Assembly: GCA_002215675.1 (NCBI GenBank) | Contig: NGFH01000003.1 | Coordinates: 80,957-144,956 of the forward strand | Origin: Bacteroidetes bacterium 2013_40CM_41_45 | GTDB taxonomy: Bacteria; Bacteroidota; Bacteroidia; AKYH767-A; 2013-40CM-41-45 | DNA: 64,000 bases | Reading direction: 5' to 3' | Shown: positions 3,369 through 61,536 of the stretch, one piece after another | Numbering within the stretch: the first letter of the stretch is position 1 | Layout of the letters: every line of letters starts with the position of its first letter | The notes under the pieces: generated by a model | Seen by the model: only the letters and a program-made list of their open reading frames with translations | The model's database searches: none | Told to the model about the DNA's origin: nothing | Translations under genes and position numbers: made by a program

Positions 3369-4298
3369 ATGACAAAAAAATTAACAATAGAATACTGTAA
3401 GAAAAAATCTAAAGAAAAAGAATATATATTGTTAGAAAATATTTATTTGAATGCTCATACGAAAATGAATTTTCAACATGTAAAATGTAAGTATATATTT
3501 TCGATGAAATGGAATAATTTTAATTCTGGAGATAGATGTCCGAATTGTCAACGCAAATCAGTTGGATTTAAAAAAAGATTAAAAATAGAAGATTGTAAAA
3601 AAATAGCTTTCAATAGAGGATTTAAATTATTGAACAATATTTATATCAACAATAAAACAAAAATGGAGTTCGTTCACATTGATTGTGGATTTAAATTTTT
3701 AAAAGGGTGGAGTAATTTTCAATCAGAAAAAGGTTGTCCAAAATGTTCTGGTAAAATTAAATTGAGCATTGAATTTTGTCAAAAAGAATCTTTCAATCGG
3801 GGTTATCAATTGCTTTCTAAAAAATATAAAAATAATAAAACAAAAATGAATTTTAAACATATTGAATGTCAATCTAATTTTTTGATGAATTGGACTAATT
3901 TCTATAATGGTAAAAGAGGTTGTCCAACATGTGATTCCAGTCTCGGAGAGTTAGAGATAAAAAAATATTTAAAAATATGGAAAATAAAAAATTATCATGA
4001 ATATTATGGATTTAAAGAATGTCGAGATAAAAAAGTTTTACCATTTGATTTCTATATAAAAAAATATAACATCTGTATTGAATATCAAGGAAAACAACAT
4101 TTTGAACCTATACAATACACATATTCAATAACTATAGAACAAGCTAAGAAAAATTTAAGAATACAAAAAAATCATGATAAAATAAAAAGAAAATTCTGTA
4201 AGAATAATAATATCATATTGCTTGAAATAAGATATAAAGATTTCAATAATATAGAAAATATTTTATATAATAAAATAGAGGAAATTAAAAATGGATAA
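3369..4298 (+). CDS. Zn-ribbon-repeat (DUF4379-like) protein with C-terminal nuclease-like module; putative homing-type endonuclease
   Basis: Three ~45-aa repeats, each ending in CPxC (CPNCQ, CPKCSG, CPTCDS). The C-terminal block FDFYIKKYNICIEYQGKQHFEP is shared with 22233 and 48931. Confidence 0.6.
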   Translation: MTKKLTIEYCKKKSKEKEYILLENIYLNAHTKMNFQHVKCKYIFSMKWNNFNSGDRCPNCQRKSVGFKKRLKIEDCKKIAFNRGFKLLNNIYINNKTKMEFVHIDCGFKFLKGWSNFQSEKGCPKCSGKIKLSIEFCQKESFNRGYQLLSKKYKNNKTKMNFKHIECQSNFLMNWTNFYNGKRGCPTCDSSLGELEIKKYLKIWKIKNYHEYYGFKECRDKKVLPFDFYIKKYNICIEYQGKQHFEPIQYTYSITIEQAKKNLRIQKNHDKIKRKFCKNNNIILLEIRYKDFNNIENILYNKIEEIKNG

Positions 4299-5631
4299 CA
4301 TCCCCCACATTGTTGTTATAGATAGTCCTACAGGTTCAGGAAAAACATCTTGGGCTATAGATATGATTAGCAAATTACCAGACGATAAAAATGTATTATA
4401 TATAACACCATATATATTAGAAGTAGATAGAATTATAGCTTCTTGTCCAAACAAACATTTAGTACAACCCAAAAAATGGTCTGGTGATGGAAGTAAAATG
4501 AATCATTTGGTTGAATTAGTATCACAAAAAAGAAATATTGTTTCTACTCATGCACTTTTGCAAAACATATCAGACGAACTAATAAATTTATTGCGTAACA
4601 ATGATTATATATTGGTTTTAGATGAAAGTTTTCAAGTAGTACAACAATATGACCTTTTTCCTGAACTAAAGAAGATGTCAAAGGAAGAAAGAGAAAATAT
4701 AACTAAATCAGATGTTCAATGGTTATTCGATGAAAAGTATATAGAAGTTACAGATAACTTTGCAATTAGATGGATAGACCAAAATAAAATGATTGGTAGT
4801 AAATATGATAAATTAAAATCTCTTATTGATAGGGATATGATTTATCTTGTAAATAATTCATTATTTTTATGGACATTTCCCTATGAGGTATTTGGAGAAG
4901 GAATATTCAAACAATGTTACATTATGACTTATTTATTTGAGAGTCAATTCCAACATTACTATTACCAATATTTTAATATCAAATATAAAAAATATCACAT
5001 TGAATCTAAAGCTAATAAATATAAAATGGTTGAAACAATAAATAATCAATATGATATTGATTTCAGAGAAAGAGCTAGTAAACTAATAACAATAATAGAT
5101 AATGACAAAATAAATAGAATAGGTTCTTTTTATCGTGATATTCATGGAAAAGTAAAGACAACTGATTTATCCATGAACTGGTATAAAAACAATGAACATT
5201 TACATAAACAATTAAGTTTAAATGTTTATAATTATTTTAAGAATATATCTAAATCAAAAGCTAATAAAAGATTATGGACTGTATTCAAAGATTTTAAGAA
5301 ATTAATAAAAAATCCTCTTACTACATCTCACGGTTTTTTGGAAATTACAGCTAGAGCTACTAATAATTACAACGATAGAAATGTACTCGCCTATCTTATT
5401 AACAGGTATCCCAATTCTTTTTATATTGCATTCTTTAGTAAAAGAGGAATAATAATAGACAGCGATTTATATGCCCTATCTGATTTGATTCAATGGGTAT
5501 GGAGAAGCGCAATCAGAAACGATAATCCAATTACCCTCTATATTCCTTCTGAGCGAATGAGAAATTTATTCTTGAACTTCCTTCAAAATAAAAAAATAAT
5601 AAATTATGAAGATTTTGATTATGAGGATTAG
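4291..5631 (+). CDS. P-loop NTPase, SF2 helicase-like (motif I SPTGSGKT, motif II VLDESF)
   Basis: 446 aa. Overlaps 3369..4298 by 8 nt. Walker A is DSPTGSGKTS and Walker B is ILVLDESF. Confidence 0.55.
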   Translation: MDNIPHIVVIDSPTGSGKTSWAIDMISKLPDDKNVLYITPYILEVDRIIASCPNKHLVQPKKWSGDGSKMNHLVELVSQKRNIVSTHALLQNISDELINLLRNNDYILVLDESFQVVQQYDLFPELKKMSKEERENITKSDVQWLFDEKYIEVTDNFAIRWIDQNKMIGSKYDKLKSLIDRDMIYLVNNSLFLWTFPYEVFGEGIFKQCYIMTYLFESQFQHYYYQYFNIKYKKYHIESKANKYKMVETINNQYDIDFRERASKLITIIDNDKINRIGSFYRDIHGKVKTTDLSMNWYKNNEHLHKQLSLNVYNYFKNISKSKANKRLWTVFKDFKKLIKNPLTTSHGFLEITARATNNYNDRNVLAYLINRYPNSFYIAFFSKRGIIIDSDLYALSDLIQWVWRSAIRNDNPITLYIPSERMRNLFLNFLQNKKIINYEDFDYED

Positions 5632-5812
5632 GGGATAAATCTATGCCTACACGCATTCGTATATCTTTAGACTTTTATAAACAACGAATTACCCGTGAAT
5701 CTGGTTTTAGCCAGTTTTAAAAAGTGATTTTGGCTAAAATAAAAAAAAAGACATATAGCACATAGTCATAAGTACCCCTTTCCCTTTTAAAAAAGATTTA
5801 TATATGTCTAAA

Positions 5813-5846
5813 ACCAAACCACCCGTAAAAAGGTGGTTTTTTTGTT
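5813..5846 (+). terminator. rho-independent terminator
   Basis: Stem AAACCACC / GGTGGTTT followed by TTTTTTTGTTT. Confidence 0.7.
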
Positions 5847-5859
5847 TAAGCTTATATTG

Positions 5860-5960
5860 ATATTTATTATTATTGTATATAGTTATTACTATTATTTATG
5901 TTGATTATTTTTAATTTTTATTTATTTTTATTATTATTGTATATAATGTTTTGTTGATTA
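5860..5960. repeat. ~100 bp almost pure A/T tract (candidate DNA unwinding element)
   Basis: No C and almost no G across tatattgatatttattattattgtatatagttattactattatttatg... Confidence 0.4.
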
Positions 5961-6540
5961 AATTGTGTGTTTAAAGGTGCTGATGACCGATTTTCAAATA
6001 CCAGTATGCTTAATTATGTAAAATACCCCTATACCTTATGATTATTACATATAATCATAAGCAATAACATACAATGAGCATGACCATATACCAGTATGAT
6101 TTTATAAATATTTGTATGATGATTCTTTGTCTCCCTACTATTGCAAGATTATTATTTTACAAAAAGATATGTACATAACACAATAACAATACATCATCAT
6201 CACATCATAATCAATATAACAATAACATAAATAAATATAATCAATACATCATAATAACAATATGATACCATAGCTCTATCACCTGCTATCATATACCACT
6301 ATGATTCAATAGGATATATAAACAGGTATACAATAACAATATCACACAATAAAATAATAAAAAAATATAACATATATACATCATAATCACATCATGATAT
6401 TATACCTATTCACCTATACATCATGCATTCATTCATCATATAACCATCTAATCATACACGATAGGATACCAGTACATCATACACGCTTCATCATACACTA
6501 GTCATATACCATATGAATATATAAATAATAAATATGTTAA

Positions 6541-6590
6541 ATAAAATAACACTCTCTTATAATCTGAGAGTGTTATTATTGTTATGTTAT
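6541..6590. terminator. bidirectional terminator hairpin (12-bp perfect inverted repeat AATAACACTCTC/GAGAGTGTTATT) flanked by T-rich runs on both strands
   Basis: Seen directly. It lies immediately downstream of the minus-strand gene 6606..7001. Confidence 0.6.
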
Positions 6591-6605
6591 TATATTTATT
6601 TATTC

Positions 6606-7001
6606 TTATTCGTAATCACTAGGATTAAACTTCTCCATACATGCATTGAATCCGTCTGAGTCATTTTCGCTATAACTCCAGTCTGAGATAATATCTTCTG
6701 CATCACCATTGCCTAGAGTGATTAAGATATTATGAAAATGTTTTTCACCATTCTTAATATAAATTCTTGACTCATCCAAATTGAATATAACTTCCATTGT
6801 AGATTTTATATTATTATCTTTTACTGTGTGACTCTCTTCACCGTCATATACCGAGTCAATTGTAAAGCCTGAGGTCACAATATGGTTAAGAAGATTCCCT
6901 ATAACTCTTCGCTCTACTTTGTTTTCTAATTTTAATTCGTGACCATATAACTTCTTCATTTCCTTATCAATATCGAGGGAGGGAGTTTTAAATTTTGTCA
7001 T
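6606..7001 (-). CDS. hypothetical protein
   Basis: 131-aa ORF at the start of the leftward block. Confidence 0.5.
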   Translation of the reverse strand: MTKFKTPSLDIDKEMKKLYGHELKLENKVERRVIGNLLNHIVTSGFTIDSVYDGEESHTVKDNNIKSTMEVIFNLDESRIYIKNGEKHFHNILITLGNGDAEDIISDWSYSENDSDGFNACMEKFNPSDYE

Positions 7002-7033: not shown

Positions 7034-8206
7034 TTATATCTTTTCAATTTTACCGCGTATTATAACGGTTTGTTTTTTACCATTAAAAGAATCTAATTTC
7101 TTTATTGTGGCAATAATAATATTAACGTTATCGCCTGCCTCAATATCGAATGATTTACTGGCAAAGTAAGTTATGATACTACCATCTGAATCGAATGTAT
7201 ATAAATGAGTTACTCCATTGTAATTATTTTCGATTTGATTATATCGGATGACCTTAGCATTAATATTATTTAATTTTGTGCCTACCTCTCCAAGATGATT
7301 TGATTCAGGTTGATTCTTTATTGTTAATTCTTTTTCCACCATACGATGATACATGGGAATAATTGAAACGATATAGCCTGAGTGCTTCTCACTCATATAA
7401 CCATATTCAATTAATTTCAATAGAGTTATATCGTATTCAGTTATACCGAACATATTATTATTTTTTGCATTAACCATCTTTTCATTTAATTTGTTTTGTA
7501 CATAGGATAAAATCTTTTTTGCCTCTTCAATTTCAAAGTCTGTTAATTTTTCTTTTGGTACAAAGTAACGATTTAATGAATCGTATTTTGTGGGATTATC
7601 TGAATCGCTTTTCTTATAACCTTGCTTGTTTATAGATTGAATCGCATAGGGTAAAAAGGATTCAATCTTCAAAAGAGTTTTACCAGTGTTAAATTTTTCG
7701 CTTGCATTCTCTTCATCTGAATATGATTTGATTAACTCGAATGAACCGCCATAAAATTTAGCTATATCTTCCGCGTTGGGAAGGTTTATATAATTAGCTA
7801 AACAATTACCACCCACTATTTTAACTTCACCTGATTCAGATTGAATCAAGTAGTAAAAATTTCGTGACCTATTTATTTTGCAATGCTCACAAATTAATTC
7901 GCATTCACGATAATTCGTAAAATCAAAAGTGGTATTGTGAGAATGAATCAAATTATCATTGCCCATTCTTTCAAGCTTTGCTAAAAATGTATAGCCTGCT
8001 ATAGTGGGAGATTCACCATATACAGAATAAATATAATCTGTACGATATGAATCCCATGCAGTAAGAGGGTCAATAACTTTTACAGTCTCTTTTGATTCAA
8101 GAGTAAAGCCAAAAGGTATATTCAATTTTTTAGCCTTATTAGTAAAGCGATTCATTTTTGATTCAAAGTCGCTTACGTTCCATGAAGGAATTCTATAGGT
8201 TGTCAT
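7034..8206 (-). CDS. hypothetical protein (390 aa) with Cys/His cluster ICEHCKINRSRNFYY
   Basis: Longest ORF of the leftward block. It is adjacent to the origin-like region. Confidence 0.55.
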   Translation of the reverse strand: MTTYRIPSWNVSDFESKMNRFTNKAKKLNIPFGFTLESKETVKVIDPLTAWDSYRTDYIYSVYGESPTIAGYTFLAKLERMGNDNLIHSHNTTFDFTNYRECELICEHCKINRSRNFYYLIQSESGEVKIVGGNCLANYINLPNAEDIAKFYGGSFELIKSYSDEENASEKFNTGKTLLKIESFLPYAIQSINKQGYKKSDSDNPTKYDSLNRYFVPKEKLTDFEIEEAKKILSYVQNKLNEKMVNAKNNNMFGITEYDITLLKLIEYGYMSEKHSGYIVSIIPMYHRMVEKELTIKNQPESNHLGEVGTKLNNINAKVIRYNQIENNYNGVTHLYTFDSDGSIITYFASKSFDIEAGDNVNIIIATIKKLDSFNGKKQTVIIRGKIEKI

Positions 8207-12728: not shown

Positions 12729-12783
12729 ATTCGCCCGCCGGGTCTACCGGACAATTCGTAAGATATTGTTATGTATACAGTTA

Positions 12784-12810
12784 TTATACAGATAACAAGC
12801 GAAGAGTCAA
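12784..12810 (-). promoter_or_regulatory. candidate leftward promoter (TTGACT-N15-TATAAT on the minus strand)
   Basis: Reverse complement of 12784-12789 is TATAAT. Reverse complement of 12805-12810 is TTGACT. Confidence 0.4.
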
Positions 12811-12979
12811 GGTCTGAGAGATAGCAATTTTAAAACTATGACTATGCGCTTTTCTCAAAATAAAGGGGTATAGAGCGAAGCAACCTCGATTCCATAGTCT
12901 GATACCTTTTTGATTTTTTAGAGGCATTATGCCACTTGAAAATTGAAGCAGTTTTTTAGTAGGAATCGGAAAATAAATC

Positions 12980-13009
12980 TTGACAAAATAAAAACAACTA
13001 TGATACAAT
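12980..13009 (+). promoter_or_regulatory. rightward promoter TTGACA-N18-TGaTACAAT
   Basis: TTGACA at 12980-12985 and TACAAT at 13004-13009. Confidence 0.5.
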
Positions 13010-13153
13010 TATATTCTTAAAATTTGAAAAATGATAGCTATACGCTTAATTGTATCAAATCGAAATTTTAATTGTGTGATTTTTTTAAATCTTAAAAAAT
13101 GTTTTTGCTATTGACAAATTTTATATTATGTGATGATGAATTTTTAAAATCAC

Positions 13154-13182
13154 TTGACCTCTTAATTGTAATGTGATACAAT
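13154..13182 (+). promoter_or_regulatory. rightward promoter TTGACC-N17-TGaTACAAT
   Basis: TTGACC at 13154-13159 and TACAAT at 13177-13182. A TAATTGTA repeat overlaps it. Confidence 0.5.
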
Positions 13183-13222
13183 TACGTCACGTATAAAAGT
13201 TTTTTACAAGTGAGGTCATACA

Positions 13223-13486
13223 ATGAAATTGAATGGGCGTTTTTATATTGAAGATGAAAAAGACTCTTCAGGTTATTGGAATCTTGTTGACACAATAGAT
13301 GGTACATTAATCGGATTCAAAAAGAAAAGCGACGCAAAAGAATCCTTAACGTTTGCTAGACAATATGTTAAACGTCATGGTGATATTGATTTTTTATCAT
13401 TCCCTTATTCAATAGATACTCCCCTCCATTATGAATCATATAATGGGCGGGAACGAATCCAAATAGAGGACAAAATAAAATCATGA
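13223..13486 (+). CDS. hypothetical protein
   Basis: 87 aa. The RBS is GTGAGG. Confidence 0.5.
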   Translation: MKLNGRFYIEDEKDSSGYWNLVDTIDGTLIGFKKKSDAKESLTFARQYVKRHGDIDFLSFPYSIDTPLHYESYNGRERIQIEDKIKS

Positions 13487-22232: not shown

Positions 22233-23207
22233 ATGGGAAATATTATTGATTTGACAGGGCATAAATATGGAAGATTAACCGTTCTAGAATTAGATTATGT
22301 AAATAAAAAAGGAAAAACGTATTGGAGTTGTCTTTGCGAATGTGGAAATCATATTACTATTCAGTCAGGAAATTTGAGAAATGGAAATACTAAGTCTTGT
22401 GGTTGTTATAATAAAGAAAAAGTAAGTGAAAGAAGTAGAATAGATTTAACTGGAAAAATTTTCGGAAGATTAAAAGTTTTAAAAATAGAACATTTAAACA
22501 AAGAACTATATTGGTTGTGTGAATGTTTAAATGATGGAAATTTATTAATTGTTAGGGCGTCTCAATTAAAAAATGGTAAAACTAAATCCTGTGGATGTTT
22601 TCAAAAGGAAATAGTTAGCAAGAGAAGTTTTATAAATTTGATAGATAAAAAATTTGGATTTTTAACCATCATAGAACTTGCTTATATGGATAAAAATAGG
22701 GGAGCATTTTGGAAATGCCAATGTTCAAGAGATGGTAATTATATTATCACGAGTTCCAGTAGTTTAAAATCGGGAAATACGAAATCATGTGGATGTTTAT
22801 CGGAAAGTTGGATTGCTTCTGAACTTAAAAAATATTTCAAGAAAAAATATGGAGCAGAAATAGAATATAAGATTTTCAAAAATATAAAGACAAACAAATT
22901 TTTACCTTTTGATATATTTTTACCGAAAGAAAATATTTATATTGAAATTCATGGACAACATCATTACAAAATTCATCGTTGGCATTATCTACAAGCTAAA
23001 AAAAATAATACATCCGTTAATCAAGAATTTTATTATCAAAAAATTAAAGATTATATGAAAAAAATGTTTGCAAAAATAAATGGGATTTACATTGAGATTG
23101 ATTTAAGAAAAATTATTGTTCCCGAAGATGCAATTATGCAAATAAATAAAATTATTAAAAATAAAATCAAAACTAGAATATTTCACCTATTGACTTTTTG
23201 GGTGTAA
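22233..23207 (+). CDS. repeat-containing putative endonuclease (GRLTVL-type repeats plus Cys clusters, same C-terminal nuclease-like module as 3369 and 48931)
   Basis: Repeats HKYGRLTVLELDY, GKIFGRLKVLKIEH and KKFGFLTIIELAY. CxCxxG clusters. C-terminus is FLPFDIFLPKENIYIEIHGQHHYK. Confidence 0.55.
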   Translation: MGNIIDLTGHKYGRLTVLELDYVNKKGKTYWSCLCECGNHITIQSGNLRNGNTKSCGCYNKEKVSERSRIDLTGKIFGRLKVLKIEHLNKELYWLCECLNDGNLLIVRASQLKNGKTKSCGCFQKEIVSKRSFINLIDKKFGFLTIIELAYMDKNRGAFWKCQCSRDGNYIITSSSSLKSGNTKSCGCLSESWIASELKKYFKKKYGAEIEYKIFKNIKTNKFLPFDIFLPKENIYIEIHGQHHYKIHRWHYLQAKKNNTSVNQEFYYQKIKDYMKKMFAKINGIYIEIDLRKIIVPEDAIMQINKIIKNKIKTRIFHLLTFWV

Positions 23208-29761: not shown

Positions 29762-30319
29762 ATGTCACCAGATGGTGTTACTCATGTAAAAATATGGAAA
29801 ACATTTTTTCCTCTCACATTGATTGTAGCTCTAGGCATAGGATTGCTTTGGAGTTGGTATATAGCAATGTTCGTTATAATAGGATGGGGATTTCATGGAT
29901 TTGGAATAGACCCGGATTTAGACCTGAGTGGTTTTAATAGGTCTGAGGCTTTATGGAGTAAATTAATTATAACTATTCCATTGATAGGTTGGTCAACATT
30001 TTATGCAAGAATATTTCAAAAATGGGGAGGACATCGAAGCATATGGACTCATGGTTTTATTATTTCTACTTTTATAAGATTAATGTTTTTTGGACTTCCT
30101 TTTTTATGGTGGTTTCGTCAACATTGGATTGATGATTTAACTAGAGAATTTTTTGGTATGTACATAGGAATGTCCATATCAGATAATTTACATATAATTG
30201 CAGATATGATTACTGGTGAAATGAATTTTTTTAGTAGAATTGGTGGAAAAAATATTTTTTTGAAAAGAATAATGAAGATTTGGTTCGATTACCCTCCAAC
30301 AAAAAAGAATGATTATTAA
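29762..30319 (+). CDS. integral membrane protein (multiple TM helices)
   Basis: Start re-set downstream of the promoter, with RBS GGAGAAAGG. Confidence 0.5.
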   Translation: MSPDGVTHVKIWKTFFPLTLIVALGIGLLWSWYIAMFVIIGWGFHGFGIDPDLDLSGFNRSEALWSKLIITIPLIGWSTFYARIFQKWGGHRSIWTHGFIISTFIRLMFFGLPFLWWFRQHWIDDLTREFFGMYIGMSISDNLHIIADMITGEMNFFSRIGGKNIFLKRIMKIWFDYPPTKKNDY

Positions 30320-30345
30320 AAATAAATTTATAAGGATAATAAATA

Positions 30346-31236
30346 ATGAATCAAAATTTTGGAAACAATAAACAAAACATGTCCGTAAGTGAAAAAATTG
30401 AACAAGATAAAGTTATAAAAAAAATAAAAGATGATAAGGGTTTGATTGGTGATTTTAAACGTTTTCCTTTATTATATCTTTCTTTAGGTGTAGCTGGAAT
30501 TTTAACATTTTTTGATGCTGTATGGATTGCATGGACAGCAACAGCACCAGTATCAAACACAATTGTAAGGCTTTTATTGGTTTCAGGATTAGGAAGTTTG
30601 ATTGGCACAGGATTTGTTTCGTTTGGGGAATTCGCTACAGCAAATTGGGAGCGCAAATTTTTTCACAGAGAAAAAGATAATAAAACTCAATATTTTGTTT
30701 CAATTTCAATGTTAGTTCTTAGTGGAATTTTTTCTGCTGTAACAGCCTATGCTTCAACAAATATTTTGGCAGTTATTTTTGGTGTTTTCTCAGAACATTT
30801 ACAAATTCCTGATTGGGCGCAAAATTGGCTTATTGGATATGTGCCTCTCGCAATTTTTGCGAATGTAATTTCAACTTTTGTTTATAGAAATAAAAGTAGA
30901 AGTTCTGAAATTAGAAGACAATTAAGCATGATAGAAATGGAAAAAACAGCCGATGCCGATGAAAGAATTTTAAAAGCTGAAATGAATGCAAGAGCTAGCA
31001 TAGCAGAACATCAAGCATTAGCATTTGAACAAGAAATGGAAGAAAGAGCTAAACATATTGGTAGAACTATGGGTGTTCATAGAGCAAAAGAAGCATCTAA
31101 AGGATTTGACTTTCCTCAACAAAATGAATCTTCTGAGCAAGAAAAAGTTTATCCAATAAATACAGAAGATTCTAAATTAAAATTAAACGAAATAAAAGAG
31201 GATTCAAAAAGAAGTCCAAATTTTCCGAACAGCTAA
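30346..31236 (+). CDS. membrane protein with C-terminal coiled-coil/charged region
   Basis: 296 aa. Confidence 0.55.
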   Translation: MNQNFGNNKQNMSVSEKIEQDKVIKKIKDDKGLIGDFKRFPLLYLSLGVAGILTFFDAVWIAWTATAPVSNTIVRLLLVSGLGSLIGTGFVSFGEFATANWERKFFHREKDNKTQYFVSISMLVLSGIFSAVTAYASTNILAVIFGVFSEHLQIPDWAQNWLIGYVPLAIFANVISTFVYRNKSRSSEIRRQLSMIEMEKTADADERILKAEMNARASIAEHQALAFEQEMEERAKHIGRTMGVHRAKEASKGFDFPQQNESSEQEKVYPINTEDSKLKLNEIKEDSKRSPNFPNS

Positions 31237-31268
31237 CACAAAAAGATATAACGTTTGACAATGAAAAT

Positions 31269-31523
31269 GTGTTAGCGTTATTTATGGACGCTTTCAAAGA
31301 AAAACATTTAATTCCTGAAAAATCTAATTTTATAGAAATAAAATCAACAAAAAAGAAAATTGGTGATAGATTAGAATGGCGAAAAAACAAAAAAGGTGAT
31401 TTAATAGGAGTTTGTTGGAGAAAAAGAAATTCAGAAAGAAAGGCTACTAGATACGTTGGAAAAAGAAAATCCCCAATTGATTTTCAACGTTTTCAAAAGG
31501 TGTATAATGAAAAAAATAGATGA
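31269..31523 (+). CDS. basic hypothetical protein
   Basis: 84 aa. Confidence 0.4.
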   Translation: MLALFMDAFKEKHLIPEKSNFIEIKSTKKKIGDRLEWRKNKKGDLIGVCWRKRNSERKATRYVGKRKSPIDFQRFQKVYNEKNR

Positions 31524-31788
31524 AGATAATATCGAATTGGAGGTTGAAGTGCCAGAAACAGACCAGATGTTATTTACGGCACTATTTTCTCCTGCCGAAG
31601 AACTGTTGGCAAGAGGGAGAATGAAAATAGTAACCATTGGCGATAATATTGTTGGAATGGTTATTCTTAATGCCAAATATGATGAATCTGTTGGCTTTGT
31701 TGACCTTCTAAACAAAGATAAAAAAACTGTTGGCAATGAGTTGGTAGAAAAAAATCAAATAAATGCCAATGAAAGAAGTCAAATATGA
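31507..31788 (+). CDS. hypothetical protein (coding sequence carries TTGGCAAT-type motifs)
   Basis: Start re-set to MKKIDED. Confidence 0.4.
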   Translation: MKKIDEDNIELEVEVPETDQMLFTALFSPAEELLARGRMKIVTIGDNIVGMVILNAKYDESVGFVDLLNKDKKTVGNELVEKNQINANERSQI

Positions 31789-32144
31789 TGAATAAAAAAG
31801 TTATTTTATGTTTATTTTTAGTGTTGGCAATAGTGTTGGCATGTCAAGTACCAGATATTAGCCTAAATAATACTGCCAATGGTCAAAACAATGGTCAAAA
31901 TATTGCCAAAACAACCCCTGAAATCATTGGCAACCCATTTAATCTAAGTGTTGGCAATGCCACAGTCCGGGCTTTTCCCGTTGGCCTAAATATAAGAGAT
32001 GATGCTAGTGCCAATGCTACAGTGTTGGCAACTGCACCAGATAATTCAACCGTAAAAATTACTGGAATTTTAGCCAATGGTTGGGTTTCTCTTTGTTGGC
32101 AAAAAATTTGCGGATTTGCCAATGCTAGGTATCTTAGCCAATAG
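31785..32144 (+). CDS. predicted lipoprotein (signal peptide with lipobox LACQ)
   Basis: MMNKKVILCLFLVLAIVLACQ. The gene is saturated with TTGGCAAT/ATTGCCAA motifs. Confidence 0.5.
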   Translation: MMNKKVILCLFLVLAIVLACQVPDISLNNTANGQNNGQNIAKTTPEIIGNPFNLSVGNATVRAFPVGLNIRDDASANATVLATAPDNSTVKITGILANGWVSLCWQKICGFANARYLSQ

Positions 32145-32151
32145 ATTGAAA

Positions 32152-32190
32152 AAGAGATAACTAAAGCCAATAGTTATCTCTTTTTATTTT
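32152..32190 (+). terminator. rho-independent terminator (AGAGATAACT...AGTTATCTCT + T-run)
   Basis: Seen directly. Confidence 0.65.
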
Positions 32191-32194
32191 AACC

Positions 32195-32223
32195 TTGACA
32201 TTTAGGTTTTAATGTGGTAATAT
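32195..32223 (+). promoter_or_regulatory. sigma70-type promoter TTGACA-N17-TGgTAATAT
   Basis: TTGACA at 32195-32200 and TAATAT at 32218-32223. Confidence 0.55.
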
Positions 32224-32253
32224 TGTTGAAAATTTGAAAAGAGGTAATTGTCA

Positions 32254-32664
32254 ATGACCAATATTTCCACCATAAGAAGTTTAAAATCACAATCAAAAAA
32301 TTGTTATTATTGTGGATATTATATTGTATTCAAAGAAGATTTGACCGTTGACCATAAACTTCCTATTTCTAAAGGTGGAAAAACAAATAGAAAAAATTTA
32401 GTAGTTTGCTGTAAAGGCTGTAATGAAGAAAAAGGTTCAATGACAGAAATTGAATTCTTCAATTATATGAAATATAAAGAAAATTTAAAATATAAATATG
32501 ATTACGATGAATTGACAAATCAAATGCTAAAAATTAAAGATATTTTTAAAATTATTGGACGCGGTTCATTCAAATTGATTGACAGTGAATCTGGAATTCA
32601 TCTTCATAGAAAAATTAGAGCGATAAAGATTGTGAGAAAATTTTATGCACTTCAAATGTATTAA
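32254..32664 (+). CDS. HNH endonuclease
   Basis: CYYCGYYIVFKEDLTVDHKLPISKGGKTNRKNLVVCCKGCNEEK carries the HNH core (DH...N...C..CN.K). Confidence 0.65.
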   Translation: MTNISTIRSLKSQSKNCYYCGYYIVFKEDLTVDHKLPISKGGKTNRKNLVVCCKGCNEEKGSMTEIEFFNYMKYKENLKYKYDYDELTNQMLKIKDIFKIIGRGSFKLIDSESGIHLHRKIRAIKIVRKFYALQMY

Positions 32665-32807
32665 TAATTCAGAACGTGAAGATATATTAACCTTGAATAA
32701 AATATATTTAGGATATTTTGATGACCAAAATATTGATTCAATTTATATTGATGAATGTGATAATGGTATTCGTGGATACTTTAGTTTAAATAGATTTGAG
32801 GTGATTG

Positions 32808-33254
32808 ATGAAGAATAAAATACTTGTTTTATCAAGAAAAGTTGCTGAAGGTTATGATTGGTATGGTAGAGATATTGCAATCATATCTGTAACAGACCCA
32901 AATCAACCATCGGCTAAATTAAATTATTTTGAGGATAAGATTCTAAGACTTCAATTTCATGATGTAGACAAAGATATGAAAATGTGGACTCCAAATGGAA
33001 CTGTACGCATATTTACAATAAATGATAGTCAAGTAAAAGATATTGTTCAATTTGTTGATAAATATTTTTATAATGTTGATGAATTTGTTATTCACTGTGA
33101 AGCTGGAATATCGAGGAGTGCAGGAATAGCCGCCGCCATTGCAAAATATATTTATCTTGATGATACAGAATATTTCAAGAAGTATATTCCAAATAGAACT
33201 GTTCACCGTTTAGTATTGAATGAATTTTATAAGCTAAAAGAAACGATAATTTAG
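32808..33254 (+). CDS. Cys-based phosphatase of the PTP/DSP superfamily (CX5R P-loop)
   Basis: HCEAGISRSAGIAAAIAKY. Confidence 0.65.
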   Translation: MKNKILVLSRKVAEGYDWYGRDIAIISVTDPNQPSAKLNYFEDKILRLQFHDVDKDMKMWTPNGTVRIFTINDSQVKDIVQFVDKYFYNVDEFVIHCEAGISRSAGIAAAIAKYIYLDDTEYFKKYIPNRTVHRLVLNEFYKLKETII

Positions 33255-33264
33255 GAGAATGAAA

Positions 33265-34356
33265 ATGACCGATAGGCCAATGGCAACACTTAGAACTGTA
33301 AATAATAAATATCCTATTCCTGAAAAGGATAGGATTGAATTGATTCAGGTAGATGGATGGCAAGTAATTTCAAAAAAGGATGAATTTGAAATTGGTGATA
33401 TGTGCATATATGCTGAACCAGATTCTATTTTTCCTGAAATACCAGATTTTGAATTTCTTCGTCCTAAAAAATTTCGTATTAAAACTATGAAGATGGCTGG
33501 AGTTATTAGTCAAGGCATTGTTTTTCCATTATCAATTCTCCCCCTCCGCAACAAGAAATATGTTCTTGGCGAAGATGTTACGGAATTGATTGGTATCACA
33601 AAATATAAAAGTGAACCAGATAATTCAATTCCACAACCAACATGGATGAAAAATCCAATTGTTAAAAAACTTTTGAGATATAAAATTTTTAGAACAATTC
33701 TTTTGCCAAATAAAGAATATAAAGGATTTCCAAAATTCATTTCTAAAACAGATGAAGAAAATGTTCAAAATTTACCATATTTATTTTCTGAAGAATTTAA
33801 AAACGTTCCATTTGCTGTTCGTGAAAAAATAGAAGGTCAATCAGGAACGTGGTTTCTTCAAAGAAAAAAGAATTGGTTTGGAAAAGAAATTTTTGAATTT
33901 GGAGTTTGTTCAAGAAATATTCGTAAATTCAAAAAAGATAATTCATCATTTTGGAAAGTTGCCATAAAATATAATATTGAAAATATTCTAAAAGAATTAA
34001 TTGGTGATAAAAATGAATGGATTGCCATTCAGGGTGAATGTGTTGGCCCCGGCATTCAAGGCAATATCTATAAATTAAATGATGTTGATGTTTATATGTT
34101 TAATTATATAGAACCAAAAGGAAAAATGGATGATAAAATAGCTGAAGTTGTTATGAATTCATATAGCATTAGATGGTGTCCTTTAATTGATAATGAATAT
34201 TATCTTCCATCAACAGCAAATGATGTTCTTGAATATTCAAATGGTACATCGCTTTTATATAATACTGACCGTGAAGGATTGGTATTTCGCAATTACGAAA
34301 AAAATATTAGCTTCAAAGCACGTTCACCTAAATATTTATTAAAATCTGATACATAG
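33265..34356 (+). CDS. ATP-dependent RNA-ligase-like nucleotidyltransferase
   Basis: KIEGQSG (motif I-like K-x-E/D-G), EGLVFRN (motif IV-like) and FKARSPKYLLK (motif V-like). Confidence 0.5.
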   Translation: MTDRPMATLRTVNNKYPIPEKDRIELIQVDGWQVISKKDEFEIGDMCIYAEPDSIFPEIPDFEFLRPKKFRIKTMKMAGVISQGIVFPLSILPLRNKKYVLGEDVTELIGITKYKSEPDNSIPQPTWMKNPIVKKLLRYKIFRTILLPNKEYKGFPKFISKTDEENVQNLPYLFSEEFKNVPFAVREKIEGQSGTWFLQRKKNWFGKEIFEFGVCSRNIRKFKKDNSSFWKVAIKYNIENILKELIGDKNEWIAIQGECVGPGIQGNIYKLNDVDVYMFNYIEPKGKMDDKIAEVVMNSYSIRWCPLIDNEYYLPSTANDVLEYSNGTSLLYNTDREGLVFRNYEKNISFKARSPKYLLKSDT

Positions 34357-42772: not shown

Positions 42773-42803
42773 GTATATATCAATCTAAGAAAGGATGATA
42801 AAC

Positions 42804-43643
42804 ATGTTTCCAGAATATCAAGAATTTTTTAATTCAAAATCAGATAAAAGTATTCACACTCTACGCTCATATCATCAAAACATTGATTCTTTTATTAGTG
42901 CTTTGAAAATTAAGAAAGTAAAAGATTTGGAAAAAGTATCTGCTGGTACATTGCGTACTTATCGTGATTCTTTGAAAATTTCAAATGCTTCAAAAAATAC
43001 TTGGACTCGTGTTTTATCATCTTTCTTTAGTTTTATGAATGAACAAGAATATATTGATTTCAATGTTTTTGATAAGGTAAAATATCTTTCTCTTACTGAA
43101 AAAGAAAAAACAATCAATATGCCAACACAAGATGAAATTAAAATGATTATTGAATCTTGTGAAAACAAAACTACAAAATTGATGTTGAATATTATGTCAC
43201 GTATTGCTTTACGTCGTGATGAATTATCAAAAATCCAAATTAAAGATATTGACGCTGATGGTCGTATTATTATTCATGGAAAAGGAAGCAAAATTAGAAT
43301 GGTGAAACTTCCTTTGGATATTTTTGAAACAATTAAGGCTCATATTAAAAATAAACGTGTAAAGTCAGAATATCTATTTAGCTATGATGGTCATAAAATT
43401 ACGGGCGATGCAATTTATATCCGTATTAATGGATTTATTGAAACCTTGAATATTTCTGATGAACGTAAAAAGGCAATTGCACATCCTCATGCTCTACGTC
43501 ATCGTGCATTGACCACCACTTACAACGTAACTAAAGACCCATATGCTGTAAAGAATTTGGCTGGTCATTCCAATTTAGCTATTGGCGAAAGATATATTCA
43601 TGCTGAATCAAATATTTATGATGATGTTACGGAGAATTTGTAG
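42804..43643 (+). CDS. tyrosine site-specific recombinase (integrase/XerC-D family)
   Basis: Box motifs ALRRDEL (Arg I), HALRHRALT (H-x-x-R) and LAGHSNLAIGERYIH (catalytic Tyr). Confidence 0.75.
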   Translation: MFPEYQEFFNSKSDKSIHTLRSYHQNIDSFISALKIKKVKDLEKVSAGTLRTYRDSLKISNASKNTWTRVLSSFFSFMNEQEYIDFNVFDKVKYLSLTEKEKTINMPTQDEIKMIIESCENKTTKLMLNIMSRIALRRDELSKIQIKDIDADGRIIIHGKGSKIRMVKLPLDIFETIKAHIKNKRVKSEYLFSYDGHKITGDAIYIRINGFIETLNISDERKKAIAHPHALRHRALTTTYNVTKDPYAVKNLAGHSNLAIGERYIHAESNIYDDVTENL

Positions 43644-48030: not shown

Positions 48031-48941
48031 CTGAACTAAGATTTCTTGTTGGAATTCCTGCAAGTGGAAAATCTACTTTTGCAAAAGAGATTTTAAAAGA
48101 TAATAATTATGTTCTTGTTTCATCGGATTCATATCGTGAAAAAATTTATGGTTCGGAAGAAATTCAAGGAAATAAAAATGAACTTTTTGAAATTATCAAT
48201 AAAGATATTATTCAATATCTTATGGATGGTAAATCTGTAATTTTTGATGCGACAAATATAGATTTAAAAAAGAGAATGGAATTAATAAAAAAAATAAATT
48301 CAAAAGTTTCAGATATTTATATAACAGCACAAGTTGTTGCAACCCAATATAAAATCTGCTTGGAAAACAACAGGAAACGGACACGTTTCGTCCCCGAATT
48401 CGTTATTAAGCGCATGTATGAAAATTTTACTTTTCCTCAAAATTTTGAAGGTATTCACAATGTCTTTATTCGGTATGATTATGATAAATATGATTATCGT
48501 CAAGAATGGCTTGAAGAACTAATGGATGATTTCAACCAAGATAATCCCCATCATAGTTCTACGCTTGGTCAGCACACACTTAAGGTTTTTGAAAATATTT
48601 TGACTGTTGCTCCCGATAATCATAGATTGCAATTGGCCGCTAAATTTCACGATATAGGAAAATTATATACAAAGACTTATAAAGATTCAAAAGGAAATCA
48701 GAAAGATTTTGCCAGTTATTATAATCATGAGCAAGTTTCGACATATGAATCTATGTTTTATCTTAAAGAAAAAAATATTCAAAATTTTGATATGTTCTAT
48801 ATTCTTGGATTGATTCAATTTCATATGAGGTTATATGGAATCAATTCTGATAAAAGCAGAGATAAACTTATAAATCTCATTGGTAGACAAATGTATGAAG
48901 ATTTAATTTTATTAAATGATGCAGATAAAAATGGAAAATAA
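48027..48941 (+). CDS. P-loop polynucleotide kinase fused to HD-domain phosphohydrolase (RNA end-healing enzyme)
   Basis: Walker A GIPASGKST. HD motifs HHSSTLGQH...KFHDIGK. 4-nt overlap with the ligase gene. Confidence 0.65.
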   Translation: MTELRFLVGIPASGKSTFAKEILKDNNYVLVSSDSYREKIYGSEEIQGNKNELFEIINKDIIQYLMDGKSVIFDATNIDLKKRMELIKKINSKVSDIYITAQVVATQYKICLENNRKRTRFVPEFVIKRMYENFTFPQNFEGIHNVFIRYDYDKYDYRQEWLEELMDDFNQDNPHHSSTLGQHTLKVFENILTVAPDNHRLQLAAKFHDIGKLYTKTYKDSKGNQKDFASYYNHEQVSTYESMFYLKEKNIQNFDMFYILGLIQFHMRLYGINSDKSRDKLINLIGRQMYEDLILLNDADKNGK

Positions 48942-50061
48942 TATAGAAAAAATAATAAAATTTTTAAATATAAAAAATTATATTTTCATTGATAATTACC
49001 ATAAAAATAATCAAATAAGAGTTATTATCCAAGACAAACTTGGCTATAAATATGATGTTCAATTTGGAAATTTAAGTGTTCAAAAGCCAAAAATTGTCCA
49101 TAAATTCAATCCCTTTAGTTTAGAAAATATAGGAATATGGATAAAGATAAATAAAAAGAATTTTTTATTATTGAAAAATAATATTTATCTAAATGCCAAT
49201 GAAAAGTTAAGATTTAAATGTTTGGATAATAAATGTAAAGAAATTTTTTTCGCAAGTTGGCATTCAATTTTTAGTGGTAGAGGATGCACATTTTGTTCTG
49301 GTTTTGAAGTTGGCAGACATAATAATTTAGAATATTTATTTCCTGAAATTGCAAAAGAATGGGATAAATCAAATTTTATAAAAGCATTTGAAATTACCTG
49401 TGGTTCAACAGAAAATATTTTATGGAAATGTAAAAAATGTGGTTATAAGTGGAATGCTTCTCCGAATCAAAGAACTTATTATAAAACGGGTTGTCCTTCT
49501 TGTTCTGGATTAATTGTTTCGGATAGTAATAGATTGTCTATTTTATTTCCAGAAATATCAAAGGAATGGCATCCAATAAAAAATGGGAATTTGACTCCAA
49601 ATGATATTAGTTATGGAAGCAATAAGAAATTTTGGTGGCTATGCCCAAAAGGACATGAATATTATTCTGCTGTTAATAATAGAATAAATGGAAGGAATTG
49701 TAAAAAATGCAAAATTAAAAAAGGTGAAAAAGAAATTATTAAAATTCTTGATATTTATAATGTAAAATATAAATTTCAATGTAATGATTTTAAAGATTGC
49801 AGAGACAAAATTGTTTTATATTTTGATTTTTATTTACCTGACTATAATATTTGTATTGAATATCAGGGAATTCAACATTATGAACCAATTGATTTTGCTG
49901 GTCGCGGTAAGAAATGGGCAAAAGAAGAATTTAAGAAAAATAAAAGAAGAGATAAAATCAAGATAAAATATTGTCAGAAAAATAATATTAAATTGATTAT
50001 TATACCTTATTGGAATTTTGATGAAATTGAAAATATTTTAAAAAGGAATTTGAAAATATGA
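48931..50061 (+). CDS. Zn-ribbon-repeat (DUF4379-like) protein with C-terminal nuclease-like module
   Basis: Repeats LFPEIAKEW...CPSCSG and LFPEISKEWHP...W.CPKGHEY. C-terminus is FDFYLPDYNICIEYQGIQHYEP. The start is uncertain (48916 or 48931). Confidence 0.6.
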   Translation: MENNIEKIIKFLNIKNYIFIDNYHKNNQIRVIIQDKLGYKYDVQFGNLSVQKPKIVHKFNPFSLENIGIWIKINKKNFLLLKNNIYLNANEKLRFKCLDNKCKEIFFASWHSIFSGRGCTFCSGFEVGRHNNLEYLFPEIAKEWDKSNFIKAFEITCGSTENILWKCKKCGYKWNASPNQRTYYKTGCPSCSGLIVSDSNRLSILFPEISKEWHPIKNGNLTPNDISYGSNKKFWWLCPKGHEYYSAVNNRINGRNCKKCKIKKGEKEIIKILDIYNVKYKFQCNDFKDCRDKIVLYFDFYLPDYNICIEYQGIQHYEPIDFAGRGKKWAKEEFKKNKRRDKIKIKYCQKNNIKLIIIPYWNFDEIENILKRNLKI

Positions 50062-60424: not shown

Positions 60425-60506
60425 GAGAATATGATGGAATGCAGACATGCCAACCTTAGAAGTTGGTGCTAGAAATAGCATACTGGTTCAAATCCAGTTA
60501 TTCTCA
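60425..60506 (+). tRNA. tRNA-Leu(TAG), type II
   Basis: Hand fold gives acceptor GAGAATA/TATTCTC, anticodon stem CCAAC/GTTGG with loop CTTAGAA, a long variable arm, and T-arm ACTGG-TTCAAAT-CCAGT. Confidence 0.7.
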
Positions 60507-60510
60507 CTAT

Positions 60511-60585
60511 GCTGATATGAAGGGAATTGGCATACCTATTTCGCTTAAAACGAAATGTTTACAGGTTCGACTCCTGTTATCAGCA
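60511..60585 (+). tRNA. tRNA with anticodon TAA (reads UUA; Leu by anticodon) but short variable loop (type I-like)
   Basis: Acceptor GCTGATA/TATCAGC. Anticodon stem TTTCG/CGAAA with loop CTTAAAA. T-arm ACAGG-TTCGACT-CCTGT. 75 nt. Confidence 0.5.
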
Positions 60586-60599
60586 CAAACAATCACTAT

Positions 60600-60685
60600 G
60601 TTCATGTGGCTGGAATTTGGTAGACGCGGCAGTTTCAAAAACTGTTATCTGAAAAGATGTGTGAGTTCGATTCTCTCCATGAACA
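60600..60685 (+). tRNA. tRNA-Leu(CAA), type II
   Basis: Acceptor GTTCATG/CATGAAC. Anticodon loop TTCAAAA. Variable arm ATCT-GAAA-AGAT. 86 nt. Confidence 0.6.
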
Positions 60686-60689
60686 CTAT

Positions 60690-60761
60690 GTCCCATTATT
60701 TCAATGGATAGAATAAAACGCTACGAACGTTTTGGTGCGAGTTCGACTCTTGCATGGGACT
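60690..60761 (+). tRNA. tRNA-Arg(ACG)
   Basis: Acceptor GTCCCAT/ATGGGAC. Anticodon stem AAACG/CGTTT with loop CTACGAA. T-arm GCGAG-TTCGACT-CTTGC. Confidence 0.65.
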
Positions 60762-60787
60762 CAAAAATTAAATGAAAAGGATGTTTT

Positions 60788-61102
60788 ATGAATAAATTTT
60801 GGTGTATATTTAGAATATTTTTTAAGAATACACTAGGAGAACTTTATGCTATTATGATAGGTGTGCCATTAGTTATAATAGTTTTTTTATTGATTTCTCA
60901 TTGGATAAGTAATTATGGAATTTATATAAAATCTTTTCTTTATAATATTCTTTATCAAATTTGTTTATTTTTATATTTATATAAAGATTTTATTATTTAT
61001 TTTCTATTTTCAATTTTCAATTTATTTTATATTTATGGATTTTATTCTGCATTGAAATATCAATGGAATAAAGCCAAAAAAGAATACAGTGGTATATTAT
61101 GA
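60788..61102 (+). CDS. small membrane protein
   Basis: 104 aa, hydrophobic. Lies between tRNA groups. Confidence 0.4.
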   Translation: MNKFWCIFRIFFKNTLGELYAIMIGVPLVIIVFLLISHWISNYGIYIKSFLYNILYQICLFLYLYKDFIIYFLFSIFNLFYIYGFYSALKYQWNKAKKEYSGIL

Positions 61103-61455
61103 GATTTCAAATTGCACAAAAAGGTGAAAAAAGAGATGTGGAAGGATTTCTTTGGCTTCCAAGAGGCTTTGATGGCAATGAAATAAGATGGTTAGAACAT
61201 GCTAAATGGAGAGAATATTATGATGGTATTAATTGGATATTTTACTATTGGAATGATTAAACGCAGTTAATAAAGGAAATATTTTATTAATAAAAAAATA
61301 GAGTTGGGCATATTCGTATGGATTGTAGTAAGTTTATTGTATTTTATAATTCTAGGATTTACTTTACGTCATATAATGTTACTATCATTTGGCTTTATTT
61401 ATGGGATTTTAAAAATAATTTCATCAATTGATGAAACGTGAATTTTATCAATAAT

Positions 61456-61536
61456 GAGTTTGTAGCCTATTGGGATGGCATCTGCCTCTTAAGCAGACAG
61501 AGTAATCTAGAACAGGTTCGATTCCTGTCAGACTCA
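61456..61536 (+). tRNA. atypical tRNA, anticodon CTT (Lys by anticodon) with 3-bp D-stem and 14-nt variable region
   Basis: Acceptor GAGTTTG/CAGACTC (one G-U pair). Anticodon stem TCTGC/GCAGA with loop CTCTTAA. T-arm ACAGG-TTCGATT-CCTGT. Confidence 0.45.

Follow-up and report, generated by a model that had tools for sequence, protein, structure and literature searches.

A dense array of short DNA sites written through the genes of a four-gene phage cassette and probably read by a protein of that cassette

Introduction

Why should one short word recur about once every 30 bp, on both strands, inside two protein-coding genes of a phage? The question is raised by positions 31602-32174 of a 64-kb stretch of contig NGFH01000003.1 (the window; 28.3% GC), which is part of an uncultivated phage genome of about 147.5 kb. 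Here the pentamer TTGGC, or its complement GCCAA, is packed into two neighbouring genes of a four-gene cassette encoding a membrane protein, a small basic protein, a small acidic protein and a lipoprotein. Replication origins, centromeres and packaging sites are built in cis around dense arrays of protein-binding words. To our knowledge almost all such arrays are non-coding and are read by few protein families. The present array is unusual in being written through the genes of an envelope-associated cassette, and array and cassette are conserved together from this 28% GC phage of about 147 kb to phages of 45-60 kb at around 50% GC. We think it probable that positions 31602-32174 form a dense array of double-stranded DNA binding sites for a sequence-specific protein of the same cassette, probably the basic protein. 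The kind of element is thus a known one, a binding-site array, and its biological role could be new.

Results

The motif array and its site

The core pentamer TTGGC/GCCAA was found 20 times within 31606-32170 (11 TTGGC and 9 GCCAA), compared with 112 copies in the other 63.4 kb of the window (about 1.8 per kb), which corresponds to a 20-fold enrichment in the array. Outside the array the word is present at chance density (TTGGC 76 observed and 67 expected, GCCAA 36 and 42, second-order Markov model). When all 5-, 6- and 7-mers were scanned for the densest 600-bp window of each, the array was the top-ranked cluster of the window at every word size (Poisson p = 4.8e-19 for the 5-mer), and the identical scan of 56 unrelated control phage loci (about 600 kb) returned only low-complexity runs and no comparable cluster. 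The array is confined to one locus in the approximately 88 kb examined of the 147.5-kb genome, a further 16 kb or so of the same genome containing no second array. Seven long contigs assemble straight through it, and identical contigs of this phage are present in JGI sample 3300002907 and in the ENA and NCBI metagenome assemblies. The motif array is real and highly non-random.

A first-pass annotation, made from the letters of the window alone, had reported about 22 copies in both orientations at a density beyond chance. The clustering, the density and the two orientations hold, and the count comes down to 20 strict copies: the copy listed at 31651 is a TTGGA variant, and of two copies placed in and just after the terminator hairpin only the one in the loop (32166) exists. 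The repeat unit also had to be redefined. The 8-mer TTGGCAAT/ATTGCCAA proposed as the unit occurs literally only 3+1 times in the array, and the full site is better described as AGTGTTGGCAAT, an asymmetric sequence of about 11-12 bp used in either orientation, with the variant CATTGGCA. The first of these two flavours reads (A)(G/C)TGTTGGCA(A)(T), and its core TGTTGGCA occurs in the array only on the + strand, where 7/8 of the copies in the window lie inside the array; the second, CATTGGCA, appears on the + strand as GCCAATG (CATTGGC on the other strand). With a weight matrix built from other phages only (see below), 18/20 strict copies score at least 9.7 bits. The array and its individual sites are as follows (coordinates, strand, feature, matrix score).

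31602..32174, both strands: motif array, 20 core copies, about 1 per 30 bp, defined by k-mer counts and the relatives-only matrix
31602..31613, +: site ACTGTTGGCAAG, 16.1 bits
31633..31644, +: site ACCATTGGCGAT, 11.6 bits
31669..31680, -: weak site ATATTTGGCATT, core GCCAA at 31672, <8 bits
31687..31698, +: site TCTGTTGGCTTT, 13.1 bits
31726..31737, +: site ACTGTTGGCAAT, 17.6 bits
31762..31773, -: site TTCATTGGCATT, 10.1 bits
31820..31831, +: site AGTGTTGGCAAT, perfect consensus, first of a 12-bp tandem doublet, 17.6 bits
31832..31843, +: site AGTGTTGGCATG, second of the 12-bp tandem doublet, 15.0 bits
31872..31883, -: site ACCATTGGCAGT, 13.4 bits; two short contigs end at 31872/31873
31877..31900, +: 12-bp tandem duplication CAATGGTCAAAA x2 inside the array, encoding NGQN NGQN, from Tandem Repeats Finder
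31902..31913, -: site TGTTTTGGCAAT, 13.0 bits
31923..31934, +: site ATCATTGGCAAC, 10.4 bits
31947..31958, +: site AGTGTTGGCAAT, perfect consensus, 17.6 bits
31977..31988, +: weak site CCCGTTGGCCTA, <8 bits
32007..32018, -: site AGCATTGGCACT, 12.9 bits
32021..32032, +: site AGTGTTGGCAAC, 16.1 bits
32070..32081, -: site ACCATTGGCTAA, 9.7 bits; contig L069 begins at 32074
32092..32103, +: site TTTGTTGGCAAA, 13.5 bits
32115..32126, -: site AGCATTGGCAAA, 12.3 bits
32134..32145, -: site TCTATTGGCTAA, overlapping the lipoprotein stop codon, 10.2 bits
32163..32174, -: site ACTATTGGCTTT, in the terminator hairpin loop, non-coding, 11.4 bits

The gaps between neighbouring copies range from 12 to 59 bp (mean 29.5 bp) and are more even than chance, with a coefficient of variation of 0.39 compared with 0.81 for random placement (P = 2e-4). 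No helical phasing or other period in the array was significant (power at 10.5 bp 1.2, null 95% level 7.2), there were hints of higher-order units of about 125 bp that were not significant, and Tandem Repeats Finder returned only two 12-bp doublets.

In a low-coverage sample, two contigs (L058 and L060), possibly from one underlying sample, stop at 31872/31873, and a third (L069, from the sample of L060) resumes at 32074. All of these breaks adjoin a copy of GCCAATGG. The interval 31872-32074 could mark a deletion, an allele polymorphism or strain heterogeneity inside the array, or the breaks may be due to no more than low coverage.

Selection at the nucleotide level

The array overlies the last two of the four same-strand cassette genes and ends in the terminator that closes the cassette.

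30346..31236, +: cassette gene 1, membrane protein of 296 amino acids, four hydrophobic segments and a charged coiled-coil-like tail
31284..31523, +: cassette gene 2, small basic protein of 79 amino acids, isoelectric point 10.4, net charge +15; candidate motif reader
31507..31788, +: cassette gene 3, small acidic protein of 93 amino acids, isoelectric point 4.5, 6 motif copies
31785..32144, +: cassette gene 4, lipoprotein of 119 amino acids, signal peptide with lipobox LAC, weak SH3_3 match, 13 motif copies
32149..32185, +: intrinsic-terminator hairpin, 15-bp perfect stem, 7-nt loop AAGCCAA, then a T run; closes the cassette

As the first-pass annotation had stated, the copies overlie coding sequence, with 6 in the acidic-protein gene and 13 in the lipoprotein gene. 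They are found in frames 0, 1 and 2 and on both strands, with one further copy in the non-coding terminator loop; GCCAA is mostly in frame 0, where it is read as Ala-Asn. When both protein sequences were kept fixed and codons were drawn from the phage's own codon usage, 0.76 and 2.87 copies were expected in the two genes compared with 6 and 13 observed, and none of 5000 resamplings reached the observed numbers. Shuffling synonymous codons within each gene, so that the codon counts of that gene were kept, gave expectations of 3.0 and 5.8 copies (P = 0.005 and P < 0.0002, respectively). The constraint on synonymous positions that had been suggested as a check is therefore present in both genes, and in the relatives described below an excess over synonymous permutation was found in 10/13 tested genes (P <= 0.02). 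Codons that are rare in this phage are overused in the array genes, GCC making up 47% of the Ala codons (10% in the background) and GGC 46% of the Gly codons (11% in the background). Given that these rare codons are overused in the motif, synonymous positions are held by the motif, and selection on the array acts at the nucleotide level.

The sites are made by the rare codons GCC and GGC and by a shaping of the amino-acid sequence of poorly constrained linkers, in which the motif leaves the peptide footprints SVG, LPTV and ANG. We infer that the GCCAAT flavour is a reverse site whose last core base falls at a third codon position, GCC-AAC having become GCC-AAT because the AT bias of the genome prefers T (88% of its Asn codons are AAT). 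The earlier suggestion that the lipoprotein may exist mainly to carry the motif is right as far as the linker is concerned, which is clearly motif-shaped, and fails for the protein as a whole, an SH3_3 lipoprotein being conserved in the cassettes of relatives. The locus is a clear example of a DNA code overlaid on a protein code.

The array in distant relatives

Nucleotide comparison of 30300-33300 with 50,697 phage records gave no match, a word-indexed homologue search with three open reading frames at or before the array gave no homologues (for the basic protein, itself only), and a homologue search with the lipoprotein returned only itself. A full HMMER scan with the basic protein (31284-31523) recovered 16 distant relatives (E = 1e-10 to 7e-4), which have in common the core RREWRI..NTGELRGVCWRERNKERKAVRYVGKR..EF..Y..YE.WRRANR and have non-conserved tails rich in Ser-Val-Gly, encoded as AGY-GTT-GGC, that is, with the motif in frame. 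At one of these loci (L070; 53% GC) 26 copies of GTTGG/CCAAC lie within about 1 kb, in the gene order basic protein, small open reading frame, SH3_3 lipoprotein. A pattern search with a sub-alignment gave 32 metagenomic loci and 5 from IMG/VR, and three of those from IMG/VR repeat loci of the metagenomic set; together with L070 there were 35 distinct loci, of which 33 were used in most analyses.

Nearly all loci that encode the basic protein have a GTTGG/CCAAC array around its gene, with 7-25 copies per kb compared with about 2 per kb nearby. The longer word TGTTGGC occurs at 6.1 per kb in the relatives' arrays and at 0.15 per kb, the chance level, in 99 kb of flanking sequence. The pooled logo of 526 sites reads A-[G/C]-T-G-T-T-G-G-C-A-[A/G]-[T], and individual sites of loci L105 and L075 read aactGTTGGcaat, the same as in the window. 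A weight matrix was built from 461 sites of the relatives only, with the window excluded, and its consensus is AGTGTTGGCAAT. In the 64-kb window 12/21 matches of at least 12 bits to this matrix fall inside 31602-32174, which gives 20 per kb in the array and 0.14 per kb elsewhere, a 140-fold difference, and three of these 12 are perfect or near-perfect consensus sequences. Thus the check on related phages that had been proposed was borne out, the same array being conserved around the same cassette. As a negative control, the RNA ligase encoded downstream in the window was used to collect 56 IMG/VR loci (at most 53% identical), and the array was present in none of them.

The motif is identical in loci whose proteins share 30-55% identity and whose GC contents differ by up to 30 points. 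Since the same word is used at 28% GC in the window and at 45-59% GC in the relatives, the motif tracks the cassette and not the host, a host factor or base composition. The GC content at the array (33-40%) is above that of the window as a whole (28%), and phages of higher GC are the probable source of the cassette.

In every one of the long loci the array sits within the same block of four same-strand genes (membrane, basic, small acidic, SH3 lipoprotein). The relatives' membrane protein has 214-354 amino acids, four hydrophobic segments, a charged coiled-coil-like tail and often a DxDGDG motif, and the four most window-like sequences carry an IP(E/D)WAQ(K/N)W box. Their small acidic protein carries ..GEEPTE(L/V)LLAL.., and their lipoprotein has a bacterial SH3 domain (L085: SH3_3, E = 1.5e-9). 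The window's membrane protein is 11-26% identical to its counterparts and BLAST detected no homology between its acidic protein and theirs; both were assigned to the cassette by position and architecture and not by detectable sequence similarity. When the sites of 29 unique loci were mapped relative to the EWR codons, they occupied -200..+50 and +150..+650 and left a gap over the strongly conserved core of the basic protein. Neighbouring sites are randomly oriented in the relatives (FR 113, RF 117, FF 114, RR 107) and variably spaced (median 34 bp, with recurrent 9-bp doublets).

The genes that flank the cassette in relatives are of early or lysogeny type (integrases, D5_N primase-helicase, an HTH_36 initiator-like protein with DnaB_C helicase, methylases, Gp3-like). 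In L110 the cassette follows the HTH_36 initiator-like gene, the DnaB_C helicase gene and a methylase gene, and in L081 it lies just before the D5_N primase-helicase gene. Endonuclease-type genes of three families are found beside or inside it, namely HNH in the window, HNH_3+AP2 in L100 and T5orf172 in L085 and L110. In the last two loci a T5orf172/MUG113 gene (L085 5428-6063, L110 11306-11854) sits between the acidic-protein and lipoprotein genes and splits the array, which in L085 resumes inside the lipoprotein gene at 6124-6176. In L075 (5089-5445) and L085 (5083-5391) the called long open reading frame begins as an alternative-frame shadow of the basic-protein core. Because such a shadow is called after the membrane gene, automatic annotation often misses the basic-protein gene, which is uncalled in L110-L112.

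Judged by its sequence, the basic protein founds a new protein family. No Pfam family and no PDB sequence matched it or 15 relatives. For the cassette proteins as a set there was no Pfam match except SH3_3 (the membrane protein of gene 1 included), no informative PHROG and no PDB sequence, and ten of them gave no match to the PADLOC defence models at E <= 0.1. An AP2/ERF domain, prompted by the string 'GVCWRKR', was rejected for the basic protein (no Pfam AP2 at E <= 10; hhalign probability 0.3%), as were Sso7d (hhalign probability 0.35%) and the arm-binding domain of lambda Int (0.2%). As to a ParB, ribbon-helix-helix or winged-helix fold, no family matched the basic protein, and a low-confidence structure model of it has four strands and a C-terminal helix. 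A literature search for the motif word returned only polymerase chain reaction primers.

Site evolution and the candidate reader

The sites change less than their surroundings in 17/19 locus pairs, for example with mismatches of 8% in sites and 26% around them for L076/L079, 0% and 7.5% for L081/L084, and 7% and 24% for L092/L094. The difference is seen although the conserved protein core is counted among the surroundings. The sites are under purifying selection.

The flanking bases of the sites co-vary with the subfamily of the basic protein. Loci encoding LRG proteins (GELRGVCWR) have 62% TG-TTGGC and 4% CCn-TTGGC sites, whereas those encoding L[IV]G proteins (G(N/G/Q)L(I/V)GVVFR) have 15% and 51%, respectively. 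The window protein, which is of the LIG type (GDLIGVCWR), is intermediate with 40% TG-TTGGC and 20% CCn-TTGGC, and odd proteins carry odd sites, as in L070 with AAGCGTTGGAG. That some twenty dispersed sites in different reading frames shift together is what co-evolution with a trans-acting reader predicts, and the basic protein (31284-31523) is the most probable candidate for this reader. The suggestion of the first-pass annotation that the repeats are a binding-site array for a sequence-specific protein thus gains support from the codon tests, the conservation in about 30 distant loci, the slower change of the sites and the co-variation with a neighbouring protein. If confirmed, the pair would offer a candidate protein-DNA recognition system with natural specificity variants (TG-TTGGC and CCn-TTGGC).

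Other features of the window

Two features lie immediately downstream of the cassette.

32195..32223, +: sigma-70/sigma-A-like promoter TTGACA-N17-TAATAT, preceded by TG; serves the next gene
32254..32664, +: free-standing HNH endonuclease gene; context, outside the cassette

The latter is one of at least four free-standing genes of homing-endonuclease type scattered in the early region (3369-4298, 22233-23207, 48916-50061 and 32254-32664; phrog_559/374 HNH-type, HNH_5). A small XerC/D-like tyrosine recombinase gene (42795-43643) adjoins a DUF932 gene.

The second-strongest k-mer cluster of the window is a non-coding stretch of about 1 kb between convergent genes (5631-6606) with degenerate ATCATA, ACATCAT, TATACC and CAATAACA words. 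The long assemblies all end in it (the ENA contig of 147,594 bp at about 6490, the JGI contigs of 96.6 and 50.8 kb at about 6371 and 6229), and the two JGI contigs sum to roughly the whole phage genome. This stretch is a candidate genome terminus, packaging region or origin. Transcription diverges and the cumulative GC skew reaches its lowest value in the window at 12730-13230, which also carries three strong tandem promoters of the type TTGACA-N17-TG-n-TAYAAT with extended -10 elements; the promoters suggest a Gram-positive-like host, and an early-promoter or origin region is plausible here. A further word, GATTCA/TGAATC, occurs 14 times in about 1 kb (7187-8160; 12 copies in 600 bp, p ~8e-12) and in all three frames of a 390-amino-acid protein of phrog_2319 (open reading frame 7034-8206, - strand), and may be a second, weaker motif cluster over a gene.

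Eleven tRNA genes (Leu x3, Arg, Lys, Ser x2, Cys, Phe, Val, Glu) lie at 60425-63892, near RNA-repair genes encoding two RNA ligases, a polynucleotide kinase, a CCA-adding enzyme and phosphoesterases. The left flank (L064) and window positions 4291-5631 contain YonV_C, YonG_N and an HU/TF1-like Bac_DNA_binding gene, which point to distant kinship with SPbeta-like Bacillus phages.

Discussion

If the basic protein reads the array, about 20 bound molecules, one per 30 bp or so, would coat approximately 600 bp and form one large nucleoprotein complex. Our preferred guess is that such a complex would mark the phage DNA and keep it at the envelope by way of the membrane protein and the lipoprotein that are conserved alongside the array. 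A tether or partition-like role is favoured because these two proteins constantly accompany the array; a replication origin is placed after it and autoregulation of the cassette third, the last being a simpler role for the same complex, which would then act by intragenic roadblocks. The cassette with its array constitutes a previously undescribed phage module, made up of a new family of small basic proteins and their probable sites, and it may hint at an unfamiliar mode of organising phage DNA inside the cell. A bolder and rather doubtful extension is that the cassette is a self-contained genome-positioning device that moves horizontally between unrelated phages and works without a partition NTPase. 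In such a device the basic protein would read the approximately 20 copies of AGTGTTGGCAAT in the cassette's own genes and would couple the phage DNA to the envelope through the acidic protein as an adaptor, the four-pass membrane protein and the SH3 lipoprotein, for segregation, organisation of replication or packaging, or protection.

Several observations weigh against a cassette-encoded reader and an envelope tether. The window array represents the downstream half only, the upstream part seen in relatives being missing. The basic-protein family was absent from 50,697 phage records and 72,556 plasmids (tblastn), and a degenerate pattern, at its sensitivity, did not find it in 185,579 species genomes (two chance matches). 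Common ancestry may account for part of the co-variation of sites and protein, given how closely the seven L[IV]G loci are related, and a reader other than the basic protein is conceivable, either the acidic protein or the membrane-protein tail. The tether, finally, is a guess as to role, and the cassette encodes no partition ATPase.

The first-pass annotation had offered a replication origin, a parS-type centromere, a packaging site and a recombination hotspot as what such an array might be. That the repeats are iterons of an origin, lying in and around the gene of the origin-binding protein, seems unlikely to us, even if origins that lie within the gene for their own binding protein are a familiar theme (lambda ori in O; P1 incC-repA-incA). 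Many of the repeats flank the gene of a small DNA-binding candidate, the cassette of relatives sits among early and replication genes (L110, L081), and genes for a DnaQ-like exonuclease and an AAA ATPase follow 4 kb downstream in the window. However, no consistent AT-rich unwinding element adjoins the arrays in 13 long loci at about 50% GC, where the 60-bp window of lowest GC lies anywhere from -1279 to +1603 (in the window itself, which is AT-rich throughout, this test is uninformative); the sites are randomly oriented, irregularly spaced and not helically phased; and the basic protein has no Rep or initiator signature. Moreover, relatives already encode a separate initiator-like protein and a helicase, the skew minimum and transcription divergence of the window lie at about 12.7-13.4 kb, away from the array, and the cassette, besides encoding envelope proteins, is found in phages that differ widely in size and type. 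Several defining features of a classical iteron origin are thus lacking. The same irregular spacing and random orientation, together with the lack of a partition NTPase, speak against a parS-type centromere. A packaging site (pac/cos) is unlikely, no terminase, portal or capsid gene being recognised among about 45 larger or array-flanking open reading frames of the window, nor within 10 kb in L110. A hotspot, in which the word would promote exchange or be an endonuclease target and the array would be a mosaic junction, is clearly improbable. It would fit the endonuclease-type genes beside or inside the cassette in three lineages and the low-coverage assembly that breaks next to GCCAATGG copies, but the sites are conserved in position and change less than the sequence around them, whereas a turnover hotspot would show the reverse; the endonucleases come from three unrelated families and none was seen in several long loci inspected; and against the two breaking contigs, which may share one sample, stand the seven that span the array.

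An element acting on the mRNA, in which UGUUGGCA and UGCCAAUG would pair (with two G-U pairs) and control stability, processing or translation, is more improbable still. The + strand does fold at -164 kcal/mol compared with -130 for shuffled sequence (z = -6.5; - strand z = -3.6), and the array windows are, after correction for GC, the most structured of 273 tested (13-63 kb). Such folding potential is nevertheless an automatic by-product of one word in both orientations, and relatives conserve the sequence itself and not pairing partners, with orientations in random order. Independent hairpins would not all require the same stem, and Rfam gave no match at the array, only tRNAs being found in the window at gathering score. 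That the array is a by-product without a function of its own, produced by peptide repeats, by foreign codon usage after recent transfer or by chance, is scarcely credible. The higher local GC, the probable origin of the cassette in higher-GC phages and the frame-0 Ala-Asn reading of GCCAA would suit it, but its copies fall in all three frames, on either strand and also outside coding sequence, the word exceeds permutations that keep each gene's codon usage, and it is identical across the protein and GC distances given above (Poisson p ~5e-19).

Three further candidates were rejected. TGGCA-N6-TTGG in the doublet resembles a sigma-54 promoter and, on inspection, lacks the TTGC element. A sponge for -35 hexamers, suggested by the 5/6 match of TTGGCA/TTGCCA to TTGACA, is disfavoured, the motif following the cassette across hosts. 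The intervals of 12-59 bp are too short for a shufflon or invertible segment and the nearest recombinase gene lies 11 kb away (42795-43643); a resemblance of GTGCCAAT to what we take to be the R64 sfx core was also noted.

Comparison with known systems

In phage SPbeta the 15-bp operator SPBRE occurs once per promoter at about ten intergenic sites and is read by the recombinase-fold repressor MrpR (PMC10516654). The array resembles this system in having a phage-specific repeated word and a phage-encoded reader (here a candidate), and the window phage shares the SPbeta-type Pfam families YonV_C and YonG_N. SPBRE does not form a dense intragenic array and has a different architecture, and the analogy was rejected.

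Iteron arrays flank the initiator gene in P1 incC-repA-incA, among the ori/crr octamers of P4 and in lambda ori within O. Like these, the array has clustered repeated sites (20 copies in 570 bp), with many short copies within the gene of the presumed binder and to either side of it, overlapping coding sequence, and with the hints of higher-order blocks mentioned above. Unlike them, it has no unwinding element, no known Rep family beside the repeats, and neither phasing nor ordered orientation or regular spacing. Its sites are 11-12 bp long, whereas iterons are 17-22 bp, the presumed reader is a protein of about 80-135 amino acids from an undescribed family, and the array spreads over genes for envelope proteins.

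A small protein encoded beside direct and inverted short repeats is also the arrangement of ParR-parC, the omega heptads of pSM19035, TubR-tubC and R388 StbA-stbS, and like those centromeres the array, with its repeats beside the gene of a candidate binder, would form one large nucleoprotein complex per molecule. Known centromeres are non-coding, have contiguous or regular repeats, and are read by ribbon-helix-helix or helix-turn-helix proteins. The cassette array, in contrast, is coding and irregular and lacks a ParA, ParM or TubZ partner, none of these NTPases being found among the cassette or flanking genes of the window or its relatives; StbA and pSK1 Par illustrate that a dedicated NTPase is not strictly required. 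Also unlike plasmid centromeres, the array occurs in several hosts that are integrase-carrying or large lytic-type phages.

Tethers between DNA and envelope are represented by Noc with its NBS sites, RacA with ram and DivIVA, and p16.7 of phi29, which use dispersed chromosomal sites or bind non-specifically. The cassette proteins are unrelated to Noc, RacA and p16.7, and interactions among them are presumed only. The likeness lies in the arrangement: a candidate site-directed DNA binder with a membrane-associated partner would explain why a membrane protein and a lipoprotein are conserved together with the array.

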